A stretch of 43,082 bases of DNA from Nitrospinae bacterium RIFCSPLOWO2_12_39_16 (GTDB lineage Bacteria > Nitrospinota > Nitrospinia > UBA9942). Positions 2,891 to 42,622 of the stretch are shown one piece after another (position 1 is the stretch's first letter; each line of letters opens with the position of its first letter). The stretch lies in the NCBI GenBank assembly GCA_001805005.1, contig MHDO01000021.1, forward strand, positions 1 through 43,082, written 5' to 3'. A model generated the notes under the pieces. That model made no database searches, was not told the origin of the DNA, and saw nothing but the letters and a program-made list of their open reading frames with translations. A program made the translations under genes and the position numbers.

Positions 2891-2894
2891 AAAA

Positions 2895-5608: not shown

Positions 5609-5650
5609 TAATAAAAATCTGTGAAAATCTGTGGTTAAGTTATGTTTTTA
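5609..5650 (+). repeat. Gene-boundary element, right half only
   Basis: AAAATCTGTG x2 then GTGGTTAAGTTATGTTTTTATTC. Lies between the FGE-fold stop and the start of the next gene. Confidence 0.55.
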
Positions 5651-6466
5651 TTCTTTGTAGTCCATCACACATCTGAATCCGTAATCATTAGACTCCATAT
5701 CAGGGCTTTCACCGAGTCTTACAGCGCTTCGGGTGCTGACTGCCGGGCTTAACCATGAGCCCCCTTTAATAACCCTAAGCTCTTTTTCCTTGTCATACCA
5801 TGTATCTGTCCATTCCCAAACATTCCCTGCCATATCATGGACACCATAAGGACTCTTACCCTCTTTATATTTATCCACCTCTGTTGTGCCTCCAAATGTT
5901 ATAGAACCTGATGTCTCCTGTGCAAACTGTCCTACCCTGGCACTCCCGCCCAATCCAGATTCATATGAGTTGCACATTAATGTATCAAATTCATTGCCCC
6001 ACGGATATATCCTTCCATCTGTCCCCCTCGCAGCCTTTTCCCACTCTTCCTCGGTTGGGAGTCTCTTTCCTGCAGATTTGCAGTATTCATTTGACTTATC
6101 CCATTTTATGTTTACTACAGGGTGTCTTGCCCTGTCTGATGGAAAACTATGGTTTGGGTCAAATTTTTTATAGTCAGCATTTGTTACCTCATGGATGTCT
6201 ATATAGAATGGTGGAAGGTTAATTTTCTTCTTAGGTTCTTCATCAGAATACCACTTTGACTTACCGCCTAACTTTTTGACTGTATCTTCTATTTCTGAAG
6301 TATCACTCCCCATTATAAACTCACCGGCAGGTATCAGAACCATCCCTTCCTGGGTTAAGGGAGATTCTGCCGATATTGCAAATTGCAAATTGCAAATTGC
6401 AAAAGTCAAAGTTATACCTAAAAAATATTTTGCTTTAAGTATTTTTCTGTGTAAATCTGTGTTCAT
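5648..6466 (-). CDS. FGE-sulfatase (SUMF1/EgtB/PvdO) fold protein, secreted, lacking the FGE catalytic Cys pair
   Basis: MVLIPAGEFIMGS, YIDIHEVTNADYKKF, AGKRLPTEEEWEKAARGTDGRIYPWGN, GNVWEWT, RVIKGGSWLS, GFRCV. No Cys between GGSW and GFRC. The N-terminus is encoded by repeat DNA, so the start is uncertain. Confidence 0.85.
   Translation of the reverse strand: MNTDLHRKILKAKYFLGITLTFAICNLQFAISAESPLTQEGMVLIPAGEFIMGSDTSEIEDTVKKLGGKSKWYSDEEPKKKINLPPFYIDIHEVTNADYKKFDPNHSFPSDRARHPVVNIKWDKSNEYCKSAGKRLPTEEEWEKAARGTDGRIYPWGNEFDTLMCNSYESGLGGSARVGQFAQETSGSITFGGTTEVDKYKEGKSPYGVHDMAGNVWEWTDTWYDKEKELRVIKGGSWLSPAVSTRSAVRLGESPDMESNDYGFRCVMDYKE
6375..6402. repeat. Heptanucleotide array ATTGCAA x4
   Basis: Exact 4 x 7 nt. 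Encodes FAICNLQFAI in the FGE-fold protein N-terminus. Confidence 0.9.
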
Positions 6467-6497
6467 CTGTGGTTAATTAGGTTTTTGTTTTTCCTTT
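6444..6497 (+). repeat. Gene-boundary element, right half only; 3' terminus forms the CcmH-like C-terminus
   Basis: TTTCTGTG TAAATCTGTG TTCATCTGTG GTTAATTAGGTTTTTGTTTTTCCT. The last 21 nt are identical to 41498-41518. Confidence 0.7.
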
Positions 6498-6950
6498 TTC
6501 TAAAAAATCCAGCACCCCTGTTATTATTAGATATAATACACCTGACCATACGAAGACAAGGGCAATGAAAAGGGCTATATCACTTATCGGATAGCCCCCC
6601 CTTGTGATTTGATACCATTTTCCATGTATTCTCTGCAGTGGTGTAAGCATTGACTCTTTTCCAAACCGCTTAAAAAAGTATCCCTCAATCTCATCCTTGC
6701 CTGCACCTGCCATCAGCCTTTTTCCTATCATATCCTTCCATTCCATTCCGCAGCTCATATGACAGTCTTCAAGGACCATCGGGCATTCACACGGGCAGGC
6801 AATGTTATGGGATATGCCCATCACAGTATCCGCAGCAGCAGAAGGCCAGAAGACATATTTTATAACAGAGAAGATAATTATAATTGATAAAGATAGAAGG
6901 AATATTTTTATTTTCATCTTGAAATTAATGAAATTATAAAATTTAGCCAC
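6477..6950 (-). CDS. CcmH/NrfF-like membrane-anchored protein with atypical Cys cluster
   Basis: IACPCECPMVLEDCHMSCGMEWKDMIGKRLMAGAGKDEIEGYFFKRFGKESMLTP followed by a TM helix. The layout matches CcmH (Cys motif, then an i..mv..G.sd.eI..yfv.rYG..vl..P helix), but the usual LRCxxC is replaced. The start may be ATG 6917 (MKIKIFLL) rather than GTG 6950. Confidence 0.55.
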   Translation of the reverse strand: MAKFYNFINFKMKIKIFLLSLSIIIIFSVIKYVFWPSAAADTVMGISHNIACPCECPMVLEDCHMSCGMEWKDMIGKRLMAGAGKDEIEGYFFKRFGKESMLTPLQRIHGKWYQITRGGYPISDIALFIALVFVWSGVLYLIITGVLDFLEKGKTKT

Positions 6951-7094
6951 AGACTTTCACGGACTAAAATATTAAAAAAACAATAATTAGGAGAAAGGGG
7001 GCATTTTCTTTTTTTCCTAATTTCTCCATTTCTCCTTAATCTTTTTATTTGTTTTTGGTCTGTGCGAGTCTGTGGCTAATCAATCTTTGTTCTT
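6921..7094 (+). repeat. Gene-boundary hairpin element with G5/C5 core
   Basis: 5' GAAATTATAAAATTTAGCCACAGACTTTCACGGACT. Core AGGAGAAAGGGGG...TTCTCCTTAATCTTTT. Right arm GGTCTGTGCGAGTCTGTGGCTAATCAATCTTTGTTCTT. Confidence 0.8.
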
Positions 7095-7882
7095 AATCTG
7101 CGTATAATTACAAATGCAATTAATATTACAATGCCTATACCGAGCAGCCATATCCCTTTTCTCCTTTCAATCAAGTCCTGTTTTGACATTGCAGAGAATT
7201 TTATATCTACGGAAGGCATAGTATCATCTTTAGCATATTTAATCTTAAATCTTACATCCTGTCCACCTTTTATATCCTTGAAAGTATAGTTATAATAATT
7301 TAAATCCTTCTTATTGACCTTGCTCATTGGCTCTGGTGAAAGCTTAAATTCTGTTGACCTCAGTGGCTCCTGAATGCTTACCTCAAGTGTATCTATCGGG
7401 TATATTAGTTTTATAATATATTCAAAGTCCCTAAGAAATCTGCCCGATTTTATATTAAACGGAGAGTATTTAAAATCTATGAAGAAATCGGCGTATGGAA
7501 GCTTTACGGATGTCTCGTTGTATTCGCCCTTATTAACAATATTATATAGCTGGCAAAAGTGCTGTCCCCCAGGAGAGAGGCTGCATACATCTGTTAGTTT
7601 TGTTACACCCTTTGGCAATGTAAATGTCACCTGATTTGGAAAGGCATCTTTATCGGCAAATTTCCCTTCATATACCACAAGGACATCAGATGATTCATAT
7701 TCAGGCATTATTGAAACCTTCATTCTACCTATTTTAAGGTCAGAAGCATTAGAAACAGTGACGAGTGACAAGTGACAAGTGACCAGTAAAAATAAAAAAC
7801 CACTGATTGCTGACCACTGACCACTGACCACTCTCTTCTGTCCTCTGTCTTCTGTCTTCTGTCTTCTGTCTTCAGTGTTCAT
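7076..7882 (-). CDS. Hypothetical exported protein with C-terminal membrane anchor
   Basis: Long ORF in an operonic position. N-terminal region RRQKTEDRGQKR + FLFLLVTCHLSLVTVSNA-SD resembles a signal peptide, but it is encoded by heptamer arrays. Beta-rich body, C-terminal TM IWLLGIGIVILIAFVII + RRLR. ATG 7882 is preceded by GGGGTGG. Confidence 0.6.
   Translation of the reverse strand: MNTEDRRQKTEDRGQKRVVSGQWSAISGFLFLLVTCHLSLVTVSNASDLKIGRMKVSIMPEYESSDVLVVYEGKFADKDAFPNQVTFTLPKGVTKLTDVCSLSPGGQHFCQLYNIVNKGEYNETSVKLPYADFFIDFKYSPFNIKSGRFLRDFEYIIKLIYPIDTLEVSIQEPLRSTEFKLSPEPMSKVNKKDLNYYNYTFKDIKGGQDVRFKIKYAKDDTMPSVDIKFSAMSKQDLIERRKGIWLLGIGIVILIAFVIIRRLRTKID
7757..7876. repeat. Three adjacent heptanucleotide tandem arrays
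   Basis: AGTGACN x4 (7757-7787), CACTGAC-type x4 (7801-7832), CTTCTGT-type x6 (7835-7876). Confidence 0.9.
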
Positions 7883-13090: not shown

Positions 13091-13211
13091 ATATAGGAAA
13101 TTATAAAATTAACCACAGGTAAACACAGATGAACACTGATAGAATAAAGAAAAAAAGTTTTTATCTGTGTTAATCTGTGTCCATCTGTGGTTTCATTAGG
13201 TCTTTGTTCTT
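13091..13211 (+). repeat. Gene-boundary hairpin element (CACAGAT decamer arms), reference copy
   Basis: ATATAGGAAATTATAAAAT-TAACCACAGGTAAACACAGATGAACACTGATAG ... TTATCTGTGTTAATCTGTGTCCATCTGTGGTTTCATTAGGTCTTTGTTCTT. The arms are about 26/32 complementary. Confidence 0.85.
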
Positions 13212-13213
13212 AT

Positions 13214-16596: not shown

Positions 16597-16670
16597 TTTC
16601 AAGCTTCAAGTTTCATGTTATAAATCACGATTTTCAAATCTTGCAACTTGCATCTTGCAACCTGCAACTT
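16597..16670. repeat. Heptamer arrays TTTCAAG x3 and CTTGCAA x4
   Basis: 16597-16617 and 16640-16670, between GldG-like and DUF4340-like genes. Confidence 0.8.
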
Positions 16671-16675
16671 TCGTT

Positions 16676-18040
16676 ATGAAATATTTCAAAAAAACATTTC
16701 TCTGGATAATAATCCTTGCAGCCCTTGCGGGGTATTTCTATCTCGATGTGGAGACCACAAAGAAAAAGGAGATAGAAAAAGAAGAGGCAACGAGGCTCCT
16801 TCCATTTAAACCTTCAGAGGTTTTGGAATTGGAATTGAAGAAGGATGGTAACCTAATACTCCTTCAGAGGTGGGAAGATGGATGGCGTATAGAAAAACCT
16901 ATTAAGGCAAAGGCAGACAACAAGGCGGTTGAGAAGGCATTAGACTATATAACCCAGTCAAAGAATGATGCGGAGTATGTGATGGATGAAAATCCGACAC
17001 AGGAGAGGCTTGCTGAATTTGGCCTTATAAATCCTCAGCTGGAGGTTACTTTAAGGGTTGGTAAGACTTTGAAACCCTATACACTTATATTCGGAGAGAG
17101 GGCACCGACAAAGGGAGTTGCATTTGCAATATTAAAGGGAAGCCCGAAGGTCTATAGAGTATTGGCAGATGCGAGGGCAGAGGCAGACCAGAGCTTGTAT
17201 TATTTTAGGGATAAGACAATATTTAGAACCGAACCTAACATGGTGGATAAAGTAGAAATAGTAAAAGATAATAAAAAGATTAAATGTGAACTTCCGATGG
17301 AAGAAAAAGGAAAGTGGGAAATTGTATCACCAGTAAAGGCAAGGGCGGATATGATTAAAATCATAGAAATAGTTTCAAAATTCAAGGATAGTGAAATAAA
17401 GGAGTTCATAGATGAAGAACCTAAGGACCTAAAGGCATACGGGTTGTATCCTGTTAAAACAAAGCTGTCAATTTGGCTAAGCGGAGATGAAACACCTACA
17501 GAGACAATATTTATTGGCGATAGGGATAAAAAAAAGAGGGGTTATTTTGCTAAGCTGGAGAAGAAGGACAATATATTCCTCATAGAAGAGAATATGATTG
17601 ACCTTCTGCCGGATGATGCAGAGGTATTAAGGGAAAGAAGCATACTGTTCTTTGAGGAAGAGAAGGTAAATAAGATAGAGGTAAAATATCCAGACAGAGA
17701 AATGGTTGTTGCAAAGACCCCGGATTTTGAATGGAAGGTAATAAAACCAAGAGAGGCAGATTTTGATTTTAATGTGGTTAAGGACTTTTTACAGAGAATA
17801 GGGGGCTTTAAGATAAAAGAATTTATATCAGAGGGGCATGAAGGATTAAAGACATACGGGCTTGATAGTCCTGCTATAAAACTTCTGATATGGGAAGAGG
17901 GAAATAAGACACCGCATGAGTTAAATATAGGGAGTATAAGCAGTAAAGGAGATGGGATATATGTATGGACAGGTGAGCAGGATACTGTTGTTCTTATAGA
18001 TGAGAAGATAAAGGGGGTGGTAAAAGAGAGTTTTATTTAG
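16676..18040 (+). CDS. DUF4340-like protein (usual partner of ABC-2/GldG systems)
   Basis: N-terminal anchor MKYFKKTFLWIIILAALAGYF and repeated beta-rich modules. The position directly after GldG-like is the usual synteny. The track start at 16655 is repeat-encoded. Confidence 0.65.
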   Translation: MKYFKKTFLWIIILAALAGYFYLDVETTKKKEIEKEEATRLLPFKPSEVLELELKKDGNLILLQRWEDGWRIEKPIKAKADNKAVEKALDYITQSKNDAEYVMDENPTQERLAEFGLINPQLEVTLRVGKTLKPYTLIFGERAPTKGVAFAILKGSPKVYRVLADARAEADQSLYYFRDKTIFRTEPNMVDKVEIVKDNKKIKCELPMEEKGKWEIVSPVKARADMIKIIEIVSKFKDSEIKEFIDEEPKDLKAYGLYPVKTKLSIWLSGDETPTETIFIGDRDKKKRGYFAKLEKKDNIFLIEENMIDLLPDDAEVLRERSILFFEEEKVNKIEVKYPDREMVVAKTPDFEWKVIKPREADFDFNVVKDFLQRIGGFKIKEFISEGHEGLKTYGLDSPAIKLLIWEEGNKTPHELNIGSISSKGDGIYVWTGEQDTVVLIDEKIKGVVKESFI

Positions 18041-18068
18041 TATTTTAAATTTAATTTAAAAATGTATG

Positions 18069-18203
18069 AAACCACAGATGGACACAGATTTACACAGACA
18101 AAAAATCATATAAGGGGAAAGGGGGGGGAATTTTTCTCCCCTATTCTCCAAATCCCCCTTTTCTCCTTAATCTTTTAGTTTCTGTGTTTATCTGTGGCTA
18201 ATA
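18069..18203 (+). repeat. Gene-boundary hairpin element with G8/C5 core
   Basis: AAACCACAGATGGACACAGATTTACACAGAC ... TAAGGGGAAAGGGGGGGG ... TCCCCCTTTTCTCCTTAATCTTTTAGTTTCTGTGTTTATCTGTGGCTAAT. Shares TTCTCCTTAATCTTTT and TCTGTGGCTAAT with 6921-7094. Confidence 0.8.
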
Positions 18204-18252
18204 AATAATTGGGGTTGAAAGTTTCATCAAGGCGAGACTTTAAGGAGCTAAA

Positions 18253-18897
18253 ATGAAAATTAAAAAAGTTTTTAGGGTATTGGCAGTATTTTTTTTGGCA
18301 TTAGTATTTTCAGGAATAAGCAGCATATCATCTGCCGAGGAGGCAGGCATTGGAGAAAAGTTTATAGATGCCCTTGAATCAAATAATGAACCAGAGATGA
18401 AGGCAATAGTAAAGAACAATAAAGATGATATACCCGGAGAGGTGAAGGCATTGGTTGAATATGCAATGGCGGGTGAGGCAGAACCAGACAAAAGGGACTA
18501 TTTTTTAAATATAGCCGGGGTTATGGCAACTATATATGATAAAGAGTTTAAAGATGACAGACTGCAAAAATTTGTTATTGCCAATATAAATTCCATGGAG
18601 AAGAAGGCGGAAAAGAAGACAGAAAAAAAGGCATCTTCTGCTGATAAGATAAAGGAAGAACTTGTTAATCTTGGCAAGGGTGAATGGATAGTAACGAATT
18701 TTAAGGTTGACAATGTAAACGATATAAAGGTAGAGATAGGTTTTAAGGTAAGCGGTGATTCAGCTTCAGCCAAGAATGTCTCTTTTGCAGATAGCAAGAA
18801 GGCAAAGGAGATTATATTGAAATATATACCAAATGCAAAGGGGAGGATTGACTGGATGAGCGGAGGCATGGGTATGAAGGCGGTATTGCTTGAATAA
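18253..18897 (+). CDS. Secreted hypothetical protein
   Basis: Signal peptide MKIKKVFRVLAVFFLALVFSGISSISSA. SD AAGGAG upstream. No recognisable domain. Confidence 0.6.
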   Translation: MKIKKVFRVLAVFFLALVFSGISSISSAEEAGIGEKFIDALESNNEPEMKAIVKNNKDDIPGEVKALVEYAMAGEAEPDKRDYFLNIAGVMATIYDKEFKDDRLQKFVIANINSMEKKAEKKTEKKASSADKIKEELVNLGKGEWIVTNFKVDNVNDIKVEIGFKVSGDSASAKNVSFADSKKAKEIILKYIPNAKGRIDWMSGGMGMKAVLLE

Positions 18898-19276
18898 AAG
18901 TCGTTCAGAAAAAGGTTTTTGCCATACTGTCAGAACTTTATCATTTCCCCTTTTTCTCACCTATGGATTGATATTTCCATTATTATCCTATGCTGGTGAT
19001 GCCATGTTGGGTGAAGAGTTGTTTAAAAAGAAATGTCGGCAATGCCATAAGACAACGGAGCAGGTTTTAATTGGTCCTGGCTTAAAGGATGTAACAAAAC
19101 GGAGAAGTATAGAATGGATTGAGAAATGGCTCATAGACCCTAAAAAGATACTGAATAGCGACGACCCTATAGCACAGGAACTTAAGAAAAATTTTAAGAG
19201 GGATATGCCCAAGATTCCTGAGATGTCCATTGATGAAAACAGGAAAGATATTATTGAATATTTAAAAACCCTGTAA
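18890..19276 (+). CDS. Small class I c-type cytochrome
   Basis: GEELFKKKCRQCHKTTEQVLIGPGLKDV haem site and a distal RDMPKIP Met. Signal-like LSFPLFLTYGLIFPLLSYA. The TTG start overlaps the upstream stop, so the exact start is uncertain. Confidence 0.8.
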   Translation: MNKSRSEKGFCHTVRTLSFPLFLTYGLIFPLLSYAGDAMLGEELFKKKCRQCHKTTEQVLIGPGLKDVTKRRSIEWIEKWLIDPKKILNSDDPIAQELKKNFKRDMPKIPEMSIDENRKDIIEYLKTL

Positions 19277-19278
19277 AA

Positions 19279-19390
19279 CCAGAAGAACAAAGACTTAATG
19301 AAACCACAGATTACACAGATTTTCACAGATTTCTAAAAAAATATTTTGTTTTAATCTGCGGCAATCTGCGAATATATAATTTCCTATACA
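19279..19390 (-). repeat. Gene-boundary hairpin element, inverted orientation
   Basis: The reverse complement reads TGTATAGGAAATTATATA-TTCGCAGATTGCCGCAGATT...ATCTGTGAAAATCTGTGTAATCTGTGGTTTCATTAAGTCTTTGTTCTTCTGG. It is collinear with 13091-13211. Confidence 0.8.
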
Positions 19391-19398
19391 TTCAAATA

Positions 19399-19866
19399 TC
19401 ATTCTGGTTTTGTCATTGAAGGAAGTTGTGTGTCAGGAGAATAATTATCTTTACTTGGCCAGCCGGGGTTTTTTGCTGCAGATACAGTGTGAATTGCAGC
19501 CATCTCTATTTGACGGTACTTGGTCATTAGTTCCAGTCTCTTTGATTTAATATCATTTAAGTTAGCCCCTTCTATTTTTACTTGATAAAGATTGTACCCC
19601 TTGTCGTAACCTATTATCTTTCCATTAATATTCTTAATAATATCATCAATTGTAGATTGATCTGTGCCGCCTGTAAATGTAATCATTATTACATCCTTAA
19701 CAGCCAGAAGTCCTGTCTCCTCATCTTTAATAAGGTCTTGCGGGGATGGCAGTGCAAAACTTTTTACTTCTTTATTAGGGCTTGGTGAATGCGGCTTAAA
19801 AACATAAATAGAAAGGGCGATAATCACCACACCGATGATGCTTGAAATGATGGATATTTTTTTCAT
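19399..19866 (-). CDS. Membrane-anchored hypothetical protein (small alpha/beta domain, propeptide-like)
   Basis: Anchor MKKISIISSIIGVVIIALSIYVF. VIMITFTGGTDQSTIDDIIKNINGKIIGYDKGYNLYQVKIEG resembles a beta-alpha-beta-beta prodomain fold. Weak call. Confidence 0.5.
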   Translation of the reverse strand: MKKISIISSIIGVVIIALSIYVFKPHSPSPNKEVKSFALPSPQDLIKDEETGLLAVKDVIMITFTGGTDQSTIDDIIKNINGKIIGYDKGYNLYQVKIEGANLNDIKSKRLELMTKYRQIEMAAIHTVSAAKNPGWPSKDNYSPDTQLPSMTKPE

Positions 19867-19931: not shown

Positions 19932-20564
19932 TTATTTATCCTTTGCACATCTAAAACCAATATATTCATGCATATCGTCGGGTATACTCATAAGGGTAGA
20001 GGTTGTCTTATTTAAATCCTCACCCTCAAAATAAGAACCTCCTCTTACGATTCTGTATTGTTTTTTACTCTCCCATGCATCTACCCACTCCCATACATTA
20101 CCCGACATGTCATAAACCCCATAAGGGCTCTTCCCTTTTTCAAATGACCCAACCTTTACAGGTCCGTTCCTTCCTGCCTCGCTTGTGTTTGCCTTTTTAC
20201 CATCTAATTTATCTCCCCACGGATATATCCTTCCATCTGTCCCCCTTGCAGCCTTCTCCCACTCCTCCGCCTTAGGAATCCTCTTCCCTGCACCTTTGCA
20301 GTATTCCTCAGCATCAAAGTAAGAAATCTCAACTACAGGAAAATCCTCTTTTCCTGCAGGAAAAGTATGCTCAGATTTAAATTTCTTGAGCTGGGCATTT
20401 GTTACCTCGTATTTATCAATATAAAAATCACCTACTTCTATCTTTTTCTTATCCTCTCCATATAAAAATTTGCCCCCCGGTATTAGAACCATATCATCAG
20501 CGGCATTTGAGATTGATACAATTGCAAATACTGCAACTGCTACTAAAAAAGAAAAAAACTTCAT
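19932..20564 (-). CDS. FGE-sulfatase fold protein, secreted, Cys-less paralogue 2
   Basis: MVLIPGGKFLYGE, YIDKYEVTNAQLKKF, AGKRIPKAEEWEKAARGTDGRIYPWGD, GNVWEWV, RIVRGGSYFE, GFRCA. Confidence 0.85.
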   Translation of the reverse strand: MKFFSFLVAVAVFAIVSISNAADDMVLIPGGKFLYGEDKKKIEVGDFYIDKYEVTNAQLKKFKSEHTFPAGKEDFPVVEISYFDAEEYCKGAGKRIPKAEEWEKAARGTDGRIYPWGDKLDGKKANTSEAGRNGPVKVGSFEKGKSPYGVYDMSGNVWEWVDAWESKKQYRIVRGGSYFEGEDLNKTTSTLMSIPDDMHEYIGFRCAKDK

Positions 20565-20766: not shown

Positions 20767-20812
20767 ATCCAAATTAAATTCAGATTTGAGAAATATAACA
20801 CAAGGGGATAAA

Positions 20813-22129
20813 ATGTTGCAAGGAAATTATAAAAAATTTTTAATTTTTTCATTATTTATCGTTTTAATATTATCTGGCTGTAAAAAGGAAGAGGAAAAGA
20901 GTGAGATAGATTTAAAGAGGGAGCAGAGGGAAAGGGAATGGGCTGTATCTGGAGAGAAGGTTGCTACCAAGGATGTAAGTGAGAAGGTATCAGCAGAGGT
21001 TGATTTTGAAAAGAAAAGTGAGGCTCAGATTTCTGCAGAGCCTCTTAGAAAAATGAAGGTAGGTGTACTGGGGGCTGAAACAGGTGAGCTATCTGAATAT
21101 GGTCTAAAAACACTTAAGGGTGCCCAGCTTGCAGTTGATGAGATAAATACTTCAGGCGGTATTAATGGGCAGTCTGTGGAACTTGTTCATTATGATACAG
21201 GCAGCACCATGAATGGAACCCTTAGTGCGGTTGATAATCTTATAGGGGAGGGTGTAGCGGCTATTATCGGCAGCGCTACGAATGAGGTTACATTCGGTGC
21301 AACCAAGATATTGAATGACAAGCAGACTATCCTTGTCTCTGCCGGAACAAGGAGGAGGATAGGGGATTCAGGTCCGTATATGTTCAGGACTACGCTCCCT
21401 GATGATACTGCTGTTGATGAGCTTATTGCTTATTGCATTAGTAAACTTGGCATAAAAAAGTTTGCACTTTTTTCATCAGTGACCAATGATTATTCTATAA
21501 CCCTTACAGCGCTATTCAAGGGGTCAATATTAAACAAAGGAGGTGAAATAGTGGAAGATTGCTTTCTTTGGTCTGAAACTACTGCGAACATCTCCAAAGA
21601 AGACTCAAGCATAGAATCCCAGATTGGAAAGATAAAATCAAAATCTCCTGAAGCAGTTGTTTATACAGGTGACCCGGTGGAAGGAATAAAGATAATCAGA
21701 GAGATGAGAAAACAAGGCATTAAGGTGCCTTTAATAGGAGGAGAGGACCTTTACATTGATAATTTTCTGAAAGAGGGTAAGGATGCTGTTCTTGGAACGA
21801 TAGTTTATTCAGGTTTCTATGGCAATTCTAATTCTCCGCATATTAAAAAATTTGTTGAATCTTACAAGAAAAAGACAGGGGAAAATCCTAACAGGATAGC
21901 AGCTCTGGGTTATGAGGCAGTGATGATAGTGGCTGAAGCATTACAGAAAACAAAATCCATGAGGCCGTCGCATATAAGGGATTCACTGTCAGGTATAAGA
22001 GATTTTAAGGGTATAACAGGTGAGGTAAGTTTTACTGATAAAAGAGAGGTAAAAAAACATGCTTATATCTTTAAGGCTGAAAAGGAAGGGGAAAAGATTA
22101 GGTTTAATTTAATAGGAGGTGAGGGATAA
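20813..22129 (+). CDS. Periplasmic binding protein, LivJ/type-1 PBP family lipoprotein
   Basis: Lipobox LILSGC. KVGVLGAETGELSEYGLKTLKGAQLAVDEINTSGGINGQSVELVHYDT is the branched-chain amino-acid-binding family N-terminus. SD AAGGGG 6 nt before ATG 20813. Confidence 0.85.
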   Translation: MLQGNYKKFLIFSLFIVLILSGCKKEEEKSEIDLKREQREREWAVSGEKVATKDVSEKVSAEVDFEKKSEAQISAEPLRKMKVGVLGAETGELSEYGLKTLKGAQLAVDEINTSGGINGQSVELVHYDTGSTMNGTLSAVDNLIGEGVAAIIGSATNEVTFGATKILNDKQTILVSAGTRRRIGDSGPYMFRTTLPDDTAVDELIAYCISKLGIKKFALFSSVTNDYSITLTALFKGSILNKGGEIVEDCFLWSETTANISKEDSSIESQIGKIKSKSPEAVVYTGDPVEGIKIIREMRKQGIKVPLIGGEDLYIDNFLKEGKDAVLGTIVYSGFYGNSNSPHIKKFVESYKKKTGENPNRIAALGYEAVMIVAEALQKTKSMRPSHIRDSLSGIRDFKGITGEVSFTDKREVKKHAYIFKAEKEGEKIRFNLIGGEG

Positions 22130-23052
22130 TGAATAAAAAGGTTCAAGATTCAAAATTCAAGATTCAAGATGTAAGAATTTCCTTAATTTTGACTTCTTGC
22201 TTCTTACTTCTGACTTCTGTCTTCTGTCTTCTGTCCTCTGCATATTCCCATGGAGGGCATGGAGGCGGTGAAGGCAAGTCAATAGATACAGAGGCAATGG
22301 TTTATATACCCGAGGGAGAATTTATAATGGGGAGTAACGAGGATGAGCTAATGGAAATAAAGAAGGTTTATGGGAAGAGAGGCGGAATTGAGGGGTATTT
22401 ATTTGAAAAGGAAAAACCAAAAAGGAAAGTCTTTGTTAAATCCTTCTATATTGATAAATACGAAGTAACGAATGCCCAGTATAAAAAATTTATAGATGTC
22501 ACAGGACACCCTGTCCCGAGGGGATGGAATAAAGGCAAGTATCCGCCGGGAAAGGCTAATAACCCTGTCCTGTATGTGAGCTGGTATGATGCTAAGGCAT
22601 ACGCAAAATGGGCAGGAAAAAGGCTCCCAACCGAGGAGGAATGGGAGAAGGCCGCAAGAGGGACTGACGGAAGGATTTTTCCGTGGGGGAATAAATATGA
22701 CCCTGCACTTACCAGTACAGCAGAATCTATTATGGAAAATATAGAGGATGGGATCTGCAATGTAACGACAGGAATTCCTGTTGGCACTGCTAAGGGGGAT
22801 GTGAGCCCATATGGTGTCCATGACATGGGCGGCAATGTGAGAGAGTGGACAGATAGCTGGTTTATAGCTGAAAAGGGGGAGAAGGTAGTAAAGGGAGGCT
22901 CATGGGTTGACCTTTCACCTAAGGCGCGAAGTGCAAGCAGGGATGGTGTTAATCCAAAAGGGGTTAGCCATATAATAGGATTCAGGTGTGTTAGGGATTA
23001 TGAAATGACCGCCACAAATAGTGTCAGTGACAGTGTCAGAAGGCAGGGTTAG
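22129..23052 (+). CDS. FGE-sulfatase fold protein, secreted, Cys-less paralogue 3 with HGGHGGGEG motif
   Basis: MVYIPEGEFIMGS, YIDKYEVTNAQYKKF, AGKRLPTEEEWEKAARGTDGRIFPWGN, GNVREWT, KVVKGGSWVD, GFRCV. Start overlaps the binding-protein stop (TAATG). Confidence 0.85.
   Translation: MNKKVQDSKFKIQDVRISLILTSCFLLLTSVFCLLSSAYSHGGHGGGEGKSIDTEAMVYIPEGEFIMGSNEDELMEIKKVYGKRGGIEGYLFEKEKPKRKVFVKSFYIDKYEVTNAQYKKFIDVTGHPVPRGWNKGKYPPGKANNPVLYVSWYDAKAYAKWAGKRLPTEEEWEKAARGTDGRIFPWGNKYDPALTSTAESIMENIEDGICNVTTGIPVGTAKGDVSPYGVHDMGGNVREWTDSWFIAEKGEKVVKGGSWVDLSPKARSASRDGVNPKGVSHIIGFRCVRDYEMTATNSVSDSVRRQG
22142..22240. repeat. Heptamer arrays TTCAAGA x4 and CTTCTGT-type x7
   Basis: 22142-22169 and 22193-22240. 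The second array has the same unit as 7835-7876 but is read on the opposite coding strand. Confidence 0.9.
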
Positions 23053-25114: not shown

Positions 25115-25233
25115 TATAATTAAAATTTTAGCCACAGACTTTCACTGACTCATAAAAATCTCAAATCTCAAATTTAAAATTTCAAATCTTTTTAAGGTCT
25201 TTGTAAATCTGTGGCAAAAAGGATTTATTTTCC
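25115..25233 (+). repeat. Gene-boundary hairpin element between convergent kinase and REC genes
   Basis: TATAATTAAAATTTTAGCCACAGACTTTCACTGACT ... AAGGTCTTTGTAAATCTGTGGCAAAAAGGATTTATTTTCC. The left arm is nearly identical to that of 6944-6965. Confidence 0.75.
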
Positions 25234-25725: not shown

Positions 25726-26028
25726 TTATACGAAGACAGGCCTTTGTAGTCTGAATATCATTTTACCATTCTTACCACCATGCCCCTCTATAATCCCATC
25801 CATGATGGCAAGCCCATATCTTTCAAGAGAATTCATCATGGACTTTAGTTCAGCAGAATCAAGACTTTTTCCATTTGCCCTCTCTATCTGCTCAAGCTCT
25901 ATTCTTTCAGGCGCATCTGTGTCTGTAGAGTTTACAAGGAGCAGAATATATAATTTTAGCTCACTATTCTTTAGAAGGGAAAAATATTTTGAGGTGCTGA
26001 GTCCTCTTAGAAACCCTATTTTGTCCAT
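25726..26028 (-). CDS. Hypothetical small protein, possibly winged-helix
   Basis: MDKIGFLRGLSTSKYFSLLKNSELKLYILLLVNS...LEQIERANGKSLDSAELKSMMNSLERYGLA. Sits 24 nt upstream of the REC gene. The track N-terminus (MSWWLFNFLY) is repeat-encoded. Confidence 0.5.
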   Translation of the reverse strand: MDKIGFLRGLSTSKYFSLLKNSELKLYILLLVNSTDTDAPERIELEQIERANGKSLDSAELKSMMNSLERYGLAIMDGIIEGHGGKNGKMIFRLQRPVFV

Positions 26029-26126
26029 GTATAGAAAATTAAATAGCCACCAAGACACAAAGGCGCAAAGGAATAAAGAATAATTTTTTCTTTGAGTCTT
26101 CGAGTCTTTGAGGCAGGTATTTGTCC
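26024..26126 (+). repeat. Gene-boundary hairpin element, AAGACACAAAGG subfamily, copy 1
   Basis: TCCATGTATAGAAAATTAAATAGCCACCAAGACACAAAGGCGCAAAGGAATAAAGAATAATTTTTTCTTTGAGTCTTCGAGTCTTTGAGGCAGGTATTTGTCC. Confidence 0.8.
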
Positions 26127-26142
26127 ATATTTATTATTGGTT

Positions 26143-32116: not shown

Positions 32117-32118
<2 letters not shown>
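31864..32118 (+). CDS. rpmA: 50S ribosomal protein L27
   Basis: [29 protein letters not shown]...[15 protein letters not shown] is a near-consensus L27. Confidence 0.95.
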
Positions 32119-33206
<1,088 letters not shown>

Positions 33207-34348: not shown

Positions 34349-34455
34349 CTGGAACACTAATTACACGAATATACGAATGGCACGAATAAAAACTAAAATT
34401 TTTTCTGTTATCAACTATTGGTGTAATTAGTCCATTCGTGTTATTCGTGTTCAGG
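34349..34455 (+). repeat. Inverted arrays of ACGAAT-type units between proB and proA
   Basis: GAACAC..CACGAATATACGAATGG (left) versus CCATTCGTGTTATTCGTGTTC (right). Also TAATTACAC / GTGTAATTA. Confidence 0.6.
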
Positions 34456-34475
34456 TTTTTGTTTATTTTAATTCT

Positions 34476-35726
34476 ATGAAAGAGAAAATTTTAAAAATTG
34501 CACAGAAGGCAAAGGCTGCTTCAAGGAAGCTGTCCAACATTTCTACAAAGATTAAAAATGATTCTCTGATAGCAATGGCAGATTTGTTGGAGGAGAGAAC
34601 CAGTTTTATTGTTGAAGCCAATTTAAAAGACATAAAATATGCAAAGGGAAAAAAGCTCTCTCCAGCAATGATAGACCGTCTTACTTTGAATGCTGCGAGG
34701 ATAAAGGATATGTCAAAGGGTTTAAGGGAGATAGTGGCGCTACCTGACCCTGTAGGTGAGGTTGTCAGGATGTGGAGGAGGCCTAATGGCCTTCAGATAG
34801 GTAAGATACGGACACCGCTTGGTGTTATAGGAATAATATATGAATCAAGACCAAATGTAACTGCAGATGCCGCATCACTATGTATAAAATCAGGTAATGC
34901 AGTGATTTTAAGGGGTGGCTCAGAGGCAATAAACTCAAATATAGCAATTGCAAAGGTTCTCTCAGAGGGAGGGAGTTCTAAGGGACTGCCTGATAATTCC
35001 ATTCAGCTTATTGATGTCCCTGAGAGAGAGGCAATATTTGAGATGCTTAAGCTGGATGCCTATATTGACCTTATCATACCGAGGGGGGGGCATAGCCTTA
35101 TCAGGAGTGTAGTTGAGAATTCTACAATACCGGTTATAAAACATGATAAAGGGTTATGCCATGTTTACATAGATAGTGAGGCGGATTTAGAAATAGGAGA
35201 GAAAATAGCCTTTAATGCTAAGGTTCAACGTCCGAGTGTGTGTAATGCGATGGAGACCCTTCTTGTCCACAAGGATGTTGCCGGTTCATTTCTGCCGTCT
35301 ATGATAAAGAGATTTAAAGATGCAAATGTTGAGATAAGGGGATGCCAGAGGACAAAGGCAATAGTTTCTGATATTAAGGATGCAACTGATGATGATTGGG
35401 ATACAGAATATTTGGATTTGATACTCTCTGTAAAGGTTGTAGATAGTATTGATGATGCAATAGAGCATATAACACGGCACGGCTCAATGCTTTCAGAGGC
35501 GATTGTAACAAAGAATTATAATAATGCATGGAAATTTTTAAGAGAGGTTGATGCAGCATCGGTCTTTGTAAATGCATCTACAAGGTTTACAGACGGCGGA
35601 CAGTTCGGGCTTGGGGCAGAGATGGGGATTAGCACGCAGAAGCTCCACTGCCGAGGTCCTATGGGATTAGAGGAACTGACATCAACCAAGTATATTGTCT
35701 TTGGAGACGGACAGATAAGGGAATAA
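34476..35726 (+). CDS. proA: Gamma-glutamyl phosphate reductase
   Basis: GVIGIIYESRPNVTADA, ILRGGSEA, catalytic Cys in PSVCNAMETLLVH. Confidence 0.95.
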   Translation: MKEKILKIAQKAKAASRKLSNISTKIKNDSLIAMADLLEERTSFIVEANLKDIKYAKGKKLSPAMIDRLTLNAARIKDMSKGLREIVALPDPVGEVVRMWRRPNGLQIGKIRTPLGVIGIIYESRPNVTADAASLCIKSGNAVILRGGSEAINSNIAIAKVLSEGGSSKGLPDNSIQLIDVPEREAIFEMLKLDAYIDLIIPRGGHSLIRSVVENSTIPVIKHDKGLCHVYIDSEADLEIGEKIAFNAKVQRPSVCNAMETLLVHKDVAGSFLPSMIKRFKDANVEIRGCQRTKAIVSDIKDATDDDWDTEYLDLILSVKVVDSIDDAIEHITRHGSMLSEAIVTKNYNNAWKFLREVDAASVFVNASTRFTDGGQFGLGAEMGISTQKLHCRGPMGLEELTSTKYIVFGDGQIRE

Positions 35727-38679: not shown

Positions 38680-41307
38680 TCAATTGACTGATGGTATTTG
38701 TTTTTTTGGTATAGTAATAGTAAAAGTAGTCCCTCTGTTTATCTCACTCTGAACCTCTATTCTTCCCCCAAGCCTTTCTATTATGCCATAGCTGACAGAC
38801 AGACCGAGCCCTGTTCCTGTCCCAACATCTTTAGTTGTAAAGAACGGGTCAAATATCCTGCTCAAGTTCTCTTGCGGGATGCCTATTCCGGTATCCGATA
38901 TAGCCACAACAAGCTCATCTCTTTCTTCCATACTTTTTATTGTCAGGATGCCGCCGCTGTCAGTAATTGCCTGTATTGCATTGATAATTACATTAAGAAT
39001 GACCTGCTGTAAATGGTTATAATCCAGTATAAATTTTTTGCTGTTCGTATTTAAGTCAAGTTTTAATTCTAAATTTCTCTCCTTTATTTTATATTCAACC
39101 AGTTTCAGAGTTTCTGTAATTATCTCGTCAAGGTTGTGCGGGGAGAATTCAAATTGGTGCTCCTTTGCAAAATCAAGCAGATTTCTTATAACAGATTCTA
39201 TTCTATTTAGCCCCTTTTCCAAAAGGGGGATGTATTTCTTTCTGACATCCTCATCATTTCCATCAGTATTTAGCGTCCTTACACAATTTTGCATTCCCCC
39301 CAATGGATTATTTATTTCATGGGCTATTCCTGTTGCCAGCTGTCCTATTGCAGCGAGCTTCTCTGTCCTGTTCATCTGATGTTGTATCCTCTTCTGTTCT
39401 GTAATATCCCTTGCGATTCCAAGCAGGTCTGTTATATTGCCACTTTCATCTTTTAGGGGTGACGAGCTTATAACTACATTCCTTATTTCACCCTTCTTAT
39501 TTGAAATTTCAACCTCGTATATCTGTTTTATGCCGTCTTTTATTGACCTATTGAACCTTTTACCTTCATGTCTTGGTGCGAGGATACTGAATATTGACTG
39601 CCCTATAAGTTCATCCTTTTTATAGCCCCAGTCTTCAATCTTCTGATTCAGGTAAGTGAATGTTCCATCCCTGTTTACTATATATATGACATCATTGGCA
39701 TTCTCTAAAAGGTTCTGCAGGTAATCCTTTGTCTCTTTAATCTCCTTTGTCCTGTCTTCAATCATTTTCTCCAGATGCTCACTGTATTCCTTTAATTCTT
39801 TCTCCATCTTCTTTTTGACTGTAACATCCCTTACGACCATTACTGAGCCTATAGTTTTTTCTCCTGACTTTATAGATGTGGCAACTATCTCAGCTGTCTT
39901 TTCGCCTATTGTGGATGTTGTAAACCAAGGCATCTTATCAGGTTGTTTTATTAATTCTCCCACCCTCTCAGGTTTCCCGTGACAGGGGAATATACTCTTT
40001 CCAAGGATATGTTTTTTGTTTACATCAAGTATTTCCTCAGCAGTAGGATTTACAATTATGACCTTATTTTCCTCATCTGCCACAATAATCCCATCCCCTA
40101 CACTAAGCAGTATGCTTTCTAATGTATTCTTTTCCTCTGACAATTCGCTGTAAAGCCCTGTCAATCTTCCAGCCATCTTGTTAAATTCTATTGCCAGAGA
40201 GGAAATTTCATCACCGGTATCTATGCTCAGCCTGTGCTCAAAATTCCCCTTTCCTATGAGTTCTGCCCCCTCTTTAAGGAGGAGTATAGGCTTTCCGATT
40301 TTATTCGCCGCATATATGCCGAGTGTAGAAAGGATTGCCACCATAATAATGCCGCTTAATAAGACAAGGAGTAAGAGTCTGTTAATAGGAGAGTAGGTTT
40401 CATCAGGGTGCTGCCTCACGAAGATAAACCATTTCTTCTTGCCAAAACTCATGTCAAAATCGTATGTAAGTTTGACAGGTGCAAAACCGATTATAGAATC
40501 TATTCCGCCGTGTGCATCATCCGCCGCCACTGCCCACCCAGGCTCATTGCTGATTATCAAATTCATCAGGGACTTGTCAATTGAGTGGCTCCTTGGCGGG
40601 AATATGGGGCACATTATAATTGACCCTTCAGAATCCACTAAATTAGCATGTCCGGTTTCATCAATCTGGACATCTGATATTATCTTATAAAGAGTATCTA
40701 TCTTTAAAATTGCTTTAATAATGCCAGTCGTGTTTCCATCTTCTATTAGCGGGATAACCATAGTGATTAGAGGCTTTCCATCTTTATCATCAAAATAGAC
40801 ATCACTTAAATATACTTTATTACTTTTGCCGGAAAGTATATCTTTAACCACATCTTCATCATCTTGAAATATGGGTTTGTTCTGGTTTTTAGTATCGGAA
40901 GTAGCTACTAGAATTCCATTTTTATCGGTTACATAAATTACTATGTATTCTTCCTTATTATGGTTTTTAAACTGCCTTAGATGTTCAGATGCCTGATTGC
41001 CCATAATCCCCTCTTGCCCCCCTTTATCAAAGGGGGGTTGGGGGGATTTAACTGCATCTCTTATATCAGGAGAAAATGTAAGATTGTGAAGCTCATCTAT
41101 CTCCCTATGTAATATGATATTGACCTTATCAGCAGTCTCTTTTGCAATCTCTTTAAAGTTTGCACCTATGGAATTTCTTATAACCTTAGTGCTGCCGATT
41201 GATATTAGAAATATTCCGAGGACTAAGGGGAGAAGCCCCACTATAACCATTGTGGAGACAAGGTTTCGCCTGATACTCTTTTTTCTGAAATTTTCTAATA
41301 TGTTCAT
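38680..41307 (-). CDS. Sensor histidine kinase (Cache-like periplasmic domain - HAMP - 2 x PAS - HisKA - HATPase)
   Basis: TM1 VIVGLLPLVLGIFLISIG, about 290-aa external domain, TM2, HAMP (PILLLKEGAELIGKGNFEHRL), two PAS-like modules, H-box GIAHEINNPL, G boxes DTGIGI / GTGLGLS. Confidence 0.95.
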   Translation of the reverse strand: MNILENFRKKSIRRNLVSTMVIVGLLPLVLGIFLISIGSTKVIRNSIGANFKEIAKETADKVNIILHREIDELHNLTFSPDIRDAVKSPQPPFDKGGQEGIMGNQASEHLRQFKNHNKEEYIVIYVTDKNGILVATSDTKNQNKPIFQDDEDVVKDILSGKSNKVYLSDVYFDDKDGKPLITMVIPLIEDGNTTGIIKAILKIDTLYKIISDVQIDETGHANLVDSEGSIIMCPIFPPRSHSIDKSLMNLIISNEPGWAVAADDAHGGIDSIIGFAPVKLTYDFDMSFGKKKWFIFVRQHPDETYSPINRLLLLVLLSGIIMVAILSTLGIYAANKIGKPILLLKEGAELIGKGNFEHRLSIDTGDEISSLAIEFNKMAGRLTGLYSELSEEKNTLESILLSVGDGIIVADEENKVIIVNPTAEEILDVNKKHILGKSIFPCHGKPERVGELIKQPDKMPWFTTSTIGEKTAEIVATSIKSGEKTIGSVMVVRDVTVKKKMEKELKEYSEHLEKMIEDRTKEIKETKDYLQNLLENANDVIYIVNRDGTFTYLNQKIEDWGYKKDELIGQSIFSILAPRHEGKRFNRSIKDGIKQIYEVEISNKKGEIRNVVISSSPLKDESGNITDLLGIARDITEQKRIQHQMNRTEKLAAIGQLATGIAHEINNPLGGMQNCVRTLNTDGNDEDVRKKYIPLLEKGLNRIESVIRNLLDFAKEHQFEFSPHNLDEIITETLKLVEYKIKERNLELKLDLNTNSKKFILDYNHLQQVILNVIINAIQAITDSGGILTIKSMEERDELVVAISDTGIGIPQENLSRIFDPFFTTKDVGTGTGLGLSVSYGIIERLGGRIEVQSEINRGTTFTITIPKKQIPSVN
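41005..41048. repeat. G/C-tract nested palindromic element inside the kinase CDS
   Basis: AATCCCCTCTTGCCCCCCTTTATCAAAGGGGGGTTGGGGGGATT. Inner stem CCCCCCTTT/AAAGGGGGG. Encodes SPQPPFDKGGQEGI. Confidence 0.8.
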
Positions 41308-41399
41308 GAAATTATATAGCCGCTAAGACACAAAGGCACAAACTAATAAAGAATAATTTTTTCTTAGGGTCTTCGAGTCTTAGTGGCATGTTTTTGTTC
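41303..41399 (+). repeat. Gene-boundary hairpin element, AAGACACAAAGG subfamily, copy 2
   Basis: TTCATGAAATTATATAGCCGCTAAGACACAAAGGCACAAACTAATAAAGAATAATTTTTTCTTAGGGTCTTCGAGTCTTAGTGGCATGTTTTTGTTC. The CAT at 41305-41307 is the kinase start codon. Confidence 0.8.
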
Positions 41400-41520
41400 A
41401 TGTATAGGAAATTATAAAATCTTTAGCCACCAAGACACAAAGGCTCAAAGAAATAGGGAATAATTTTTACTTAGTGTCTTCGTGTCTTTGTGGCAAAAAT
41501 TAGGTTTTTGTTTTTCCTAT
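41397..41520 (+). repeat. Gene-boundary hairpin element, AAGACACAAAGG subfamily, copy 3 (head-to-tail with copy 2)
   Basis: TTCATGTATAGGAAATTATAAAATCTTTAGCCACCAAGACACAAAGGCTCAAAG...CTTAGTGTCTTCGTGTCTTTGTGGCAAAAATTAGGTTTTTGTTTTTCCT. The 3' terminus encodes the deacetylase C-terminus. Confidence 0.85.
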
Positions 41521-42546
41521 AAGGCTTTTTAAATGAAATACTACCGACTCCCCTAATGCCTCAAGGTTATATCCACCCTCAAGAACAGATACAATTCTCC
41601 CTTTACAGACCTTATCTGAAGCCTCACAAATAATATCTGTTAGTTTGCCGAATCCTTCGGATGTAATATTCATTGAACCAAGGGGGTCGTTTATATGTGC
41701 ATCAAAACCTGCAGAAATCATAATCAAATCCGGTTTATAATTGATTATCTTAGGATAAATCCTTTTTTTAAAGAGAGAAATATATTCCTTATCACCCTGC
41801 CCATGAGGCAGAGGTAAATTCATTGTAAAACCTTTTCCATCTCCATTTCCAGTCTCGTCAGACCTGCCAGTGCCTGGAAATAGGTATTCCTGATGAAGGC
41901 TTACATAAAAGACAGCAGGATCATTATAGAATGCGTTCTGTGTGCCGTTGCCATGATGAACATCCCAGTCTATGATAAAGACCCTTTTTACATTATACAT
42001 TTTTTGGGCATACTTTGCACCGATTGCAATATTATTAAAAAGGCAGAATCCCATTGCCCTGTCCCTTTCAGCATGGTGTCCGGGCGGCCTTACAGCACAA
42101 AAGACATTATTTACCCCGTTAGAAAGCCCCACCCCTTGTGGGGTGGGGACTAAAGCCCCGTCCTTTCTAACGGGGTTTATCTTTCCTTCAAATACAGCAT
42201 CTACTCCTGTTATAACCCCTCCTGCTGCGAGAAGGGCTGCATCATAAGAGTCTTCTGAAATAACAGTATCTGCATCCAATTCCCCCCTGCCCCCCTTTTC
42301 TAAAGGGGGGAGTGGGGGGATTAACTTTTCACAAGCCTCTTTAACATTGTGAATGTATTCCCTATCATGGATTAATGAAATCTGTTCAACTGTTGCAGGA
42401 ATCGGGGTGAGATTTATCAGTTTTTTTGTCAGATTCTCATTTTCTATCCACTTAATGATTGTTGTAAGACGGTTGGAATTTTCAGGATGATTGCCGGTAT
42501 TATGTTTCAGATATACAGGTGAATACACAAAACCTGTCTTTTTCAT
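41500..42546 (-). CDS. Histone deacetylase-family (AcuC/HDAH-like) zinc amidohydrolase carrying two in-frame palindromic insertions
   Basis: MKKTGFVYSPVYLKH, RPPGHHAERDRAMGFCLFNN, IDWDVHHGNGTQ, ISAGFDAH, LEGGY. ATG 42546 gives the conventional N-terminus. Confidence 0.9.
   Translation of the reverse strand: MKKTGFVYSPVYLKHNTGNHPENSNRLTTIIKWIENENLTKKLINLTPIPATVEQISLIHDREYIHNVKEACEKLIPPLPPLEKGGRGELDADTVISEDSYDAALLAAGGVITGVDAVFEGKINPVRKDGALVPTPQGVGLSNGVNNVFCAVRPPGHHAERDRAMGFCLFNNIAIGAKYAQKMYNVKRVFIIDWDVHHGNGTQNAFYNDPAVFYVSLHQEYLFPGTGRSDETGNGDGKGFTMNLPLPHGQGDKEYISLFKKRIYPKIINYKPDLIMISAGFDAHINDPLGSMNITSEGFGKLTDIICEASDKVCKGRIVSVLEGGYNLEALGESVVFHLKSLIGKTKT
42114..42175. repeat. 62-nt nested perfect palindrome inside the deacetylase CDS
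   Basis: Outer stem CCCCGTTAGAAAG / CTTTCTAACGGGG (13 bp). Inner stem CCCCACCCC / GGGGTGGGG (9 bp), loop TTGT. Confidence 0.85.
42278..42322. repeat. Second copy of the G/C-tract palindromic element, inside the deacetylase CDS
   Basis: AATTCCCCCCTGCCCCCCTTTTCTAAAGGGGGGAGTGGGGGGATT. Encodes IPPLPPLEKGGRGE in the same element frame as the kinase copy. Confidence 0.8.
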
Positions 42547-42622
42547 ATTTAAAGAGTAGCAAATGACATATAGAATCGTCAATTGTAGAACTGATTGAGG
42601 ATTAGTATAGCAGTAAATTAAA

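Follow-up and report, generated by a model that had tools for sequence, protein, structure and literature searches.

Small repeats that form hairpins and run into the ends of genes are known from several bacteria, the QMITE elements of Coxiella burnetii among them. In the passages of Wachter et al. (2018, PMC5896051) that deal with these, QMITE1 and QMITE2 share 1-50 bp with the 3' ends of functional genes (ubiB, pntAA, mutT, recN, ruvB and others), and in EnhC of the Dugway strain a QMITE gives the C-terminal residues with the stop codon immediately downstream, strains differing from one another. The present text concerns a stretch of 43,082 nucleotides (the window) that covers positions 1 to 43,082, forward strand, of contig MHDO01000021.1 of Nitrospinae bacterium RIFCSPLOWO2_12_39_16, and in which one identical 21-mer, AATTAGGTTTTTGTTTTTCCT, ends two unrelated proteins, a histone-deacetylase-family enzyme and a CcmH-like protein, with the same residues GKTKT. 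The 21-mer is quite probably the end of a non-autonomous, multi-copy hairpin repeat, similar to the REP sequences or to miniature inverted-repeat transposable elements (MITEs), that spreads through the gene junctions of an uncultured Nitrospinota-like groundwater lineage.

The units in question share with the QMITEs of the passages cited their small size, multiple copies, hairpin formation and overlap with gene 3' ends. The QMITEs however have defined terminal inverted and direct repeats and a conserved body, whereas here the hairpin types are swappable and the inverted repeats very short; further, one tail of 4-5 residues recurs in at least six protein families, unlike what those passages report, and no link of QMITEs to start codons is described in them. 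The MITEs reviewed by Delihas (PMC2229807), namely Correia/NEMIS of Neisseria, ERIC/IRU, YPAL/RU-2 and RUP, combine a length of about 100-200 bp with long stem-loops and lie mainly between genes. Co-transcription is frequent among them, and they can be fused in frame to neighbouring open reading frames (ORFs), form part of a signal peptide, or carry putative outward promoters; their termini have TA. Gene-end overlap is treated in that review for Correia, ERIC/IRU, YPAL and RPE. Each such family has one conserved sequence with recognisable terminal inverted repeats and target-site duplications, whereas the present one keeps termini of about 16 nt while its hairpin varies. REP and BIME sequences are abundant extragenic palindromes at gene 3' ends, composite or tandem, with proposed roles in termination and mRNA stabilisation, the REPs being 20-40 nt, G+C-rich, tagged by GTAG or CGTC and of alternating orientation in BIMEs (PMC2817692, PMC3733652). 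The stems here are in contrast A+T-rich and of 20-30 bp, without such a tag, and tandem copies share one orientation; given the missing tag and the A+T-rich stems a REP/RAYT-like reading was dropped.

Rickettsia palindromic elements (RPEs) insert in frame inside genes and add internal peptide segments. They resemble the present case in that palindromic repeats are tolerated in coding sequence, the deacetylase and kinase genes of the window both carrying in-frame palindromic inserts, but the element of interest sits at junctions and ends the ORF. Integron attC sites are imperfect hairpins in which structure is conserved over sequence; they have short conserved ends and lie at ORF 3' ends, often with the stop codon. 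An attC reading was abandoned because the RYYYAAC/GTTRRRY core sites are absent, and because the neighbours are operon genes syntenic across five genomes and not cassettes. Small repeats that overlap gene ends are therefore already known (the Coxiella QMITEs, Correia, ERIC/YPAL and RPE), and the present repeat is a new family, with the size, copy identity and presence/absence polymorphism by which MITEs are recognised. It is distinguished by its modularity (one terminus pair with many hairpin types), by nesting and tandem growth, and by the recurrent identical tail.

The shared 21-mer and its repeat unit

The earlier note on this DNA, made from the sequence alone, had reported identical copies of the 21-mer at 6475-6495 and 41498-41518. 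These are exactly the two sites at which it occurs; allowing for as many as 3 mismatches adds no further site in the window, and of 100 dinucleotide-preserving shuffles not one held two matches. The minus-strand ORFs ended by it run over 6477..6950 (CcmH-like) and 41500..42582 (deacetylase), each with its stop codon within the 21-mer copy (TTA on the plus strand at 6477-6479 and 41500-41502). Read on the minus strand, 41498..41518 begins AGG AAA AAC.. and in register gives GGA AAA ACA AAA ACC TAA, that is G K T K T stop, and the two translations indeed end ..SLIGKTKT-stop (deacetylase) and ..FLEKGKTKT-stop (CcmH-like), as the note had claimed for two unrelated proteins. Both ORFs are real genes by Pfam and homologue evidence. 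The deacetylase gene (41500..42546, minus strand), whose last five codons and stop lie inside the repeat element called H, has a Hist_deacetyl match of 2.3e-102 that ends at residue 352 of 360, so the GKTKT tail falls outside the fold. The CcmH-like gene (6477..6917, minus strand) takes its assignment from a weak Pfam match and from 110 homologues, several of them called CcmH by their sources. Protein homologues point to uncultured Nitrospinota/"Nitrospinae".

The unit whose right terminus has the 21-mer as its last 21 nt is present in about 13 copies in the window (43 kb). In element orientation it consists of a left terminus TAGGAAATTATAAAAT, a hairpin middle and a right terminus (A/T)TTAGGTYTTTGTTCYT, the latter reading A(R)GA ACA AAR ACC TAA toward the downstream gene. 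The middle is an imperfect hairpin of 60-230 nt with arms made of runs of 7-10 nt tandem units; the arm sequence types are mutually unrelated (CACAGAT.., GACACAAAG.., CACGAAT.., CACTGAAG..) and the termini are common to all of them. Stems of 20-30 bp, which start GCCAC or ACCAC, enclose loops of 15-130 nt, and complete units fold as RNA with z = -4.2 to -6.0 against shuffles. The unit ends are TAGGAAATT.../...TTTGTTCYT, the two termini forming short imperfect inverted repeats (TAGGAA / TTCCTA) whose pairing is variable (TATAGGAAA with TTTCCTATA in element H, TATAGGAA with TTCTTATA in element B). Tandem and nested copies are common, and in tandem the termini lie end to end (..TTAGGTYTTTGTTCATGTATAGGAAATTATAAAAT..). 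Rfam has no family that scores at or above gathering level for the units, its sole match in the window being a fluoride riboswitch.

That both 21-mer sites are the 3' terminus of a repeat, another point raised earlier, is borne out, in one case by a complete unit and in the other by an arm and terminus only. Element H (41403..41521, plus strand) has its left terminus TATAGGAAATTATAAAAT at 41403-41420, its hairpin at 41426-41494 and then the right terminus AAAAATTAGGTTTTTGTTTTTCCTATA, and folds with z = -4.2 on either strand; half-element I (6437..6495, plus strand) has one arm of CACAGAT-type repeats (6446-6474) followed by the right terminus, and no folding was found over 6437-6495. The two 21-mers are a derived variant, AGGAA+AAA+CAAAAACC, of the consensus AGGAACAAAAACC. 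Its extra AAA accounts for the additional lysine of GKTKT and for identity at 21 of 21 positions, despite the different arm types of the two copies.

Outside the window a left-terminus scan of a metagenome collection gave 59 loci, mostly in one group of JGI samples. Whole H-type units, located by exact-seed search, are nearly base-for-base identical in at least 10 other genomic contexts, the likeness running from ..(A/T)GAACAAAAACCTAAT on the GAAC side to ..TTTTATAATTTCCTATAC on the CCTATAC side, with unrelated flanks beyond. Of 28 units picked out by their right terminus and hairpin only, 22 have TATAAT no more than 20 nt past the stem, so the two termini belong together. Chimeric joins at repeats, or true stops lying further upstream, would make the shared tail an artefact of assembly or annotation, and the window does appear to be metagenome-derived and is repeat-rich, with assemblers known to fail at repeats. 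Such an artefact is scarcely credible: the same junction architecture recurs, with sequence divergence, in independent JGI, NCBI, ENA and Logan assemblies, orthologous proteins predicted independently share the tails, and neither the deacetylase nor the CcmH-like translation has an in-frame stop upstream of the 21-mer.

Filled and empty gene junctions

The order deacetylase, sensor kinase, sigma-54 response regulator is conserved in five assemblies, and the deacetylase-kinase junction differs in each. The window has two tandem units there. In the related locus L001 there is one unit, the stop of the terminus is lost and the protein continues into the arm (..GKTNTCHKDSKTQRK); L003 has a nested pair and a GRTKT-TGA tail from GGAAGAACAAAGACCTGA; L004 has a hairpin of unrelated sequence without these termini and its protein ends ..TGK. 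The junction of L134 is element-free and reads ..CTT ATG GGC GAT TAA A ATG.., so that the protein has the end ..LMGD and a single base separates its stop from the kinase ATG. Among the aligned deacetylase orthologues, seven close ones have G[KR]T[KN]T, predicted independently, and wherever the DNA was read a copy flanked by an element has the tail or its read-through form and a copy without that flank has no tail.

The CcmH-like protein tells the same from the other side, its GKTKT end being found in none of 25 aligned orthologues, whose tails are ..KKRKIQSK, ..KKRKSSDPLE, ..KKRKTAS, ..EKRRI, ..KKKIAIS and others. The junction between this gene and the FGE-sulfatase gene holds the half-element in the window and an unrelated repeat in L131, and in L133 it is element-free, reading ..AAA ACC GCC TCA TGA with the TGA overlapping the next ATG (ATGA). 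Further junctions of this operon also vary between assemblies. Element-free junctions with different native ends (..LMGD in L134, ..KKRKTAS in L133) mean that insertion replaced native gene ends, which was one of the two explanations put forward in the earlier note; the orthologue comparison it proposed comes out accordingly, element-free orthologues not ending in GKTKT and the window's stops lying in the 21-mer. Its other explanation, elements evolved as portable stop/start junctions, is possible, yet unneeded to explain the data. An undescribed modular family from an uncultured Nitrospinota-like group joins the few cases of mobile repeats that demonstrably rewrite gene ends, with both empty and filled orthologous junctions in hand.

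The tail is not confined to these two proteins. A search for the terminus as read toward the downstream gene, GAACAAARACCTAA, at up to 2 mismatches in 462 kb (the window and related loci) gave 67 occurrences in unique contexts, and at 27 of these an open frame of 70 codons or more ends between -45 and +40 nt. The most frequent class, 8 of these 27 ORF ends, stops at the terminus's own TAA or TGA and so ends (K/R)TKT-stop. Two of the eight are spurious antisense frames (at element B and at its orthologue L112); the others belong to the deacetylase (in the window and in L003), the CcmH-like protein, a Ppx/GppA phosphatase, a PAP2 phosphatase and a radical-SAM enzyme, and in the last three the tail begins past the end of the Pfam domain. 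The protein of ORF 7076..7882 has close orthologues that end ..RTKT, and at 55% identity and below the orthologues have basic tails unrelated to it; the window's own ..RTKID, an end correctly given in the earlier note (TAG at 7076-7078), is a mutated form of ..RTKT. Terminus-derived tails are thereby seen in six protein families, the deacetylase, the CcmH-like protein and four more. The remaining ORFs stop a few bases ahead of the terminus or in its other frames (..EQKHN, ..YKE and ..DSE, each followed by the stop). Raw counts of frame use, 9 of 16, are nominally significant (p = 0.05), and the bias is not significant (5-6 of 13, p = 0.24-0.45) when spurious ORFs are removed and orthologues are counted once. 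As the motif with its TAA or TGA is equally conserved in the non-coding copies (elements B, D and K), conservation is at the level of DNA and not of protein.

Could such tails be native, with the likeness arising by convergence or by local gene conversion between nearby A-rich stretches, and no repeat element involved? The native tails of the CcmH-like protein and of the ORF 7076 protein are indeed basic and A-rich (..KKRKTAS on AAAAAGAGAAAAACC, and ..RSKKRKTKA), and L133 has a motif-like tail without a hairpin. But the motif occurs with the same neighbours, the hairpin and then TTTTATAATTTCC, in dozens of contexts that are unrelated and in many cases non-coding; element-free orthologues end differently, no other CcmH-like orthologue has GKTKT, and the deacetylase domain is complete ahead of its tail. 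This explanation is very improbable, being already largely refuted.

On the preferred reading, a repeat colonising junctions, the units would be non-autonomous mobile DNA that spreads, with copies persisting only in the tiny spacers between closely packed operon genes. Since stop codons in this lineage adjoin or overlap the next start codon, a surviving insertion would fill the junction; where the native stop overlapped or adjoined the next ATG, the upstream ORF would enter the terminus and be closed after (R/G/K)TKT, and the left terminus (..TTTTATAATTTCCTATAC) would end on, or a few bases from, the ATG of the downstream gene. Entry in the GKTKT frame is then what gives two unrelated proteins the same tail. 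Being short, basic and past the folded domain, the added tail is probably harmless, and such tails may well be tolerated rather than selected. Read in this manner the repeat explains identical C-terminal tails on unrelated proteins of the lineage, and the odd N-terminal extensions of many, and it bears on gene calling, on orthology-based annotation and on the reading of 'lineage-specific' termini in metagenome-assembled genomes.

Several observations weigh against this reading, or at least blur it. The element-free junctions come from orthologues that are just 81-82% identical, so exact breakpoints are ambiguous and loss is not strictly separable from gain. No transposase partner was identified, no transposase search having been made on the loci. 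The terminal inverted repeats are just 5-9 nt; TA flanks the best copies, H and B, and (A/T)GAAC(AAA) stands on both sides of several copies, neither of them consistently, and a clean target-site duplication did not emerge. The 18-nt core of the 21-mer is multi-copy in none of 185,579 representative genomes (67 single hits, scattered over unrelated taxa, were found); chance hits alone suggest that the source lineage is apparently unrepresented there. Finally, in L133 (2440-2530) the orthologue of ORF 7076 has the end ..KTKS-stop, encoded by a motif-like AAAACAAAAAGTTAAT that no hairpin follows. This is either what a lost hairpin left behind or native sequence similar to the terminus; termini and hairpins can separate, or the motif can outlive the hairpin.

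Start codons and possible transcript signals

At the left end of the unit, an ORF of 70 codons or more follows 35 of the 87 unique left termini. Counted from the end of ..CCTAT, the start codon is at -2 to +3 in 17 of the 35, giving TATAAT-N5-ATG or TATAAT-N9-ATG without a Shine-Dalgarno sequence; in 8 more it lies at +10 to +17, some of these keeping a Shine-Dalgarno sequence. The element called G (41308..41402, plus strand), in tandem with H and with a short-form right terminus ATGTTTTTGTTCATG, abuts with its left terminus GAAATTATATA the start codon of the sensor histidine kinase gene (38680..41307, minus strand; CAT at 41305-41307). Likewise the left terminus of element F (26029..26133, plus strand) abuts the native ATG (26026-26028) of a conserved 100-residue protein (25726..26028).

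The earlier note held that the CATG of this terminus supplies these two start codons. Its placing of both ATGs directly against the terminus stands, but the kinase N-terminus aligns codon for codon with that of element-free L134 (MRISEIFRKRSIRRNL against MNILENFRKKSIRRNL), with the ATG at the same codon, and the 100-residue protein, itself starting MDKI, belongs to a small family whose members, even at 30-40% identity, share its start position with M[DNE]K[ILM]. Both ATGs being conserved, the terminus lies against native starts and is not their source. A different event is seen at the FGE-sulfatase gene (5648..6466, minus strand), where ATG|AAAAATAGT.. in L131 corresponds to CAG|AAAAATACT.. 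in the window: the native ATG appears to be gone and the ORF now begins 21 nt further upstream, with an ATG that lies within the arm of element I (6464-6466 on the plus strand), giving MNTDLHR... This appears to be the only gene with a new start codon from an element arm. So the arm origin proposed for the MNTD terminus (6466) holds, and that for MNTE (7882) does not, since MNTE is followed by heptamer tandem repeats and is kept in close orthologues.

The pairing of TATAAT with an ATG a short, fixed distance on, and no Shine-Dalgarno sequence, points to a putative promoter for leaderless mRNA. This fixed spacing is the most interesting lead, as it offers a testable route to whether the repeats re-wire operon expression. 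Hairpin and termini might act on transcripts as terminator or stabiliser, or by way of TATAAT as a promoter for near-leaderless mRNA. In 41200-41600 a sigma-70 consensus scan called no promoter, a -35 box being absent, and a scan for intrinsic terminators called none, the hairpins being too long-looped and A+T-rich for the terminator rule. On the element plus strand the hairpins are followed by UUAGGUUUUUGUUC, and it is on this strand, opposite to the common gene direction, that the RNA hairpin is more stable in 24 of 31 complete units (Wilcoxon p = 0.001; units from the window and L003-L130), with G-U pairs numbering 102 vs 68. This bias could reflect selection on a transcript of the element plus strand or a strand-biased mutation pattern, and it fits neither a simple model of a terminator for the upstream gene nor pure neutrality.

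These features bear on the proposal that the units are selected junction cassettes, with termini acting as functional signals: a stop and a terminator or insulator hairpin on one side, and TATAAT 5-9 nt before the ATG on the other. Elements would then persist since, at any site of insertion, they restore a functioning stop/start junction, the downstream gene being re-expressed from a leaderless or near-leaderless mRNA. Consistent with this are the 17 close starts without a Shine-Dalgarno sequence and the 8 somewhat further off, the retention of TATAAT in the independently ascertained units, the retention of TAA or TGA in right termini even where these are non-coding, and the kinase, whose ATG is kept in the window although its 1-nt coupling to the deacetylase stop is lost and no Shine-Dalgarno sequence is present. 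The scans of 41200-41600 argue against it, as do the frame use of the terminus, not significantly biased after filtering, the greater hairpin stability on the strand opposite to a 'stop then start' reading, and the orientation of 11 of the 31 units (about a third) opposite to the neighbouring gene; moreover selection against insertions outside tiny spacers would give abutment too. Selected cassettes therefore seem unlikely, if not negligibly so. More doubtful still is the further step that self-contained cassettes have as their target the base immediately 5' to a start codon (as a rule ATG-AAC/GAC-AAA) and bring a 4-codon tail with its stop, an insulating or terminating hairpin and a TATAAT 5-9 nt from the native ATG that drives leaderless translation. 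If true, a selfish repeat would, across the lineage, be turning operons with translational coupling into leaderless genes that are transcribed separately.

Further units and other repeats in the window

The junction-colonising family is represented by further units along the window. Element M (2894..3009, plus strand), with CACTGAAG-type arms, contains in its right terminus the stop (TAA, 3003-3005) of the Na+/H+ exchanger-family gene 3003..4145, and the degenerate terminus of half-element J (5616-5655) contains the stop of the FGE-sulfatase gene. Element A (6930..7095, plus strand) has a long loop or nested insert, lies with its left terminus 14 nt before the CcmH-like ATG, and in its right terminus encodes the ..RTKID-stop of ORF 7076..7882. 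Elements B (13095..13213, plus strand) and K (34350..34475, plus strand, with CACGAAT-type arms) are opposite in orientation to neighbouring genes, the right terminus of B ending 2 nt ahead of the ATG (13214) of an ABC-transporter ATPase gene and that of K preceding the ATG of gene 34476..35726. On the minus strand, element C (18058..18205), with degenerate termini and a long loop, lies downstream of gene 16655..18040, and element D (19283..19400) has a non-coding right terminus that starts 9 nt past the stop of a cytochrome c gene (18890..19276). Element E (25120..25233, plus strand) has a degenerate right terminus GGAAAATAA that holds the stop of the REC-domain gene, whose ..DSGK-stop ending (TAA at 25225-25227) had been read correctly before.

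Other repeats touch the same genes. In the deacetylase gene (42112-42177 and 42280-42318) and the kinase gene (41005-41053) there are strongly palindromic in-frame inserts in coding sequence. The 66-nt deacetylase insert encodes NPVRKDGALVPTPQGVGLSNGV, gives an RNA hairpin of -42.5 kcal/mol and is not in an orthologue of 98% identity; a palindrome of about 39 nt, C6TTTnnAAAG6, encodes PPLPPLEKGGRGE, occurs in the kinase gene too and is dispersed in L003, L004, L078, L111 and L115. By analogy these inserts may be said to resemble RPEs in behaviour. The unrelated repeat that fills the CcmH-like/FGE-sulfatase junction in L131 (2950-3050) belongs to a family GTCATTGCGAGG...CCTCGC..CGGAATGAC found also in L097 and L075/L123, nested in the loops of hairpin units at other loci.

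Dozens of heptamer (period 7) tandem repeats stand at gene boundaries and in N-terminal coding regions across the window, for example at 6375-6403, 7757-7880, 22138-22240, 27530-27614 and 32115-32190. The N-terminus of ORF 7076..7882 (MNTEDRRQKTEDRGQKRVVSGQWS..) is made of CAGAAGA, CAGTGGT and GTCACTT runs, its close orthologues having other heptamer units and copy numbers and its distant ones ordinary signal peptides; the FGE-sulfatase signal peptide has TGCAAAT four times in the window vs CAGCCTT four times in L133. The fluoride riboswitch (Rfam RF01734, 63 bits; 4165-4226, minus strand) lies upstream of the Na+/H+ exchanger-family gene. A further type of dispersed palindromic repeat (..GTCACCCTGAATTCATTTCAGGGTCTC.. 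/ ..GATGCTGAAACAAGTTCAGCATGAC..) stands at 20580-20700, within the spacer of 221 nt that precedes gene 20786..22129. Parts of the FGE-sulfatase gene show 74-86% nucleotide similarity to ORFs 19932..20564 and 22129..23052 (5984-6123, 20202-20316 and 22562-22700), which are probably paralogous FGE-sulfatase-domain genes.

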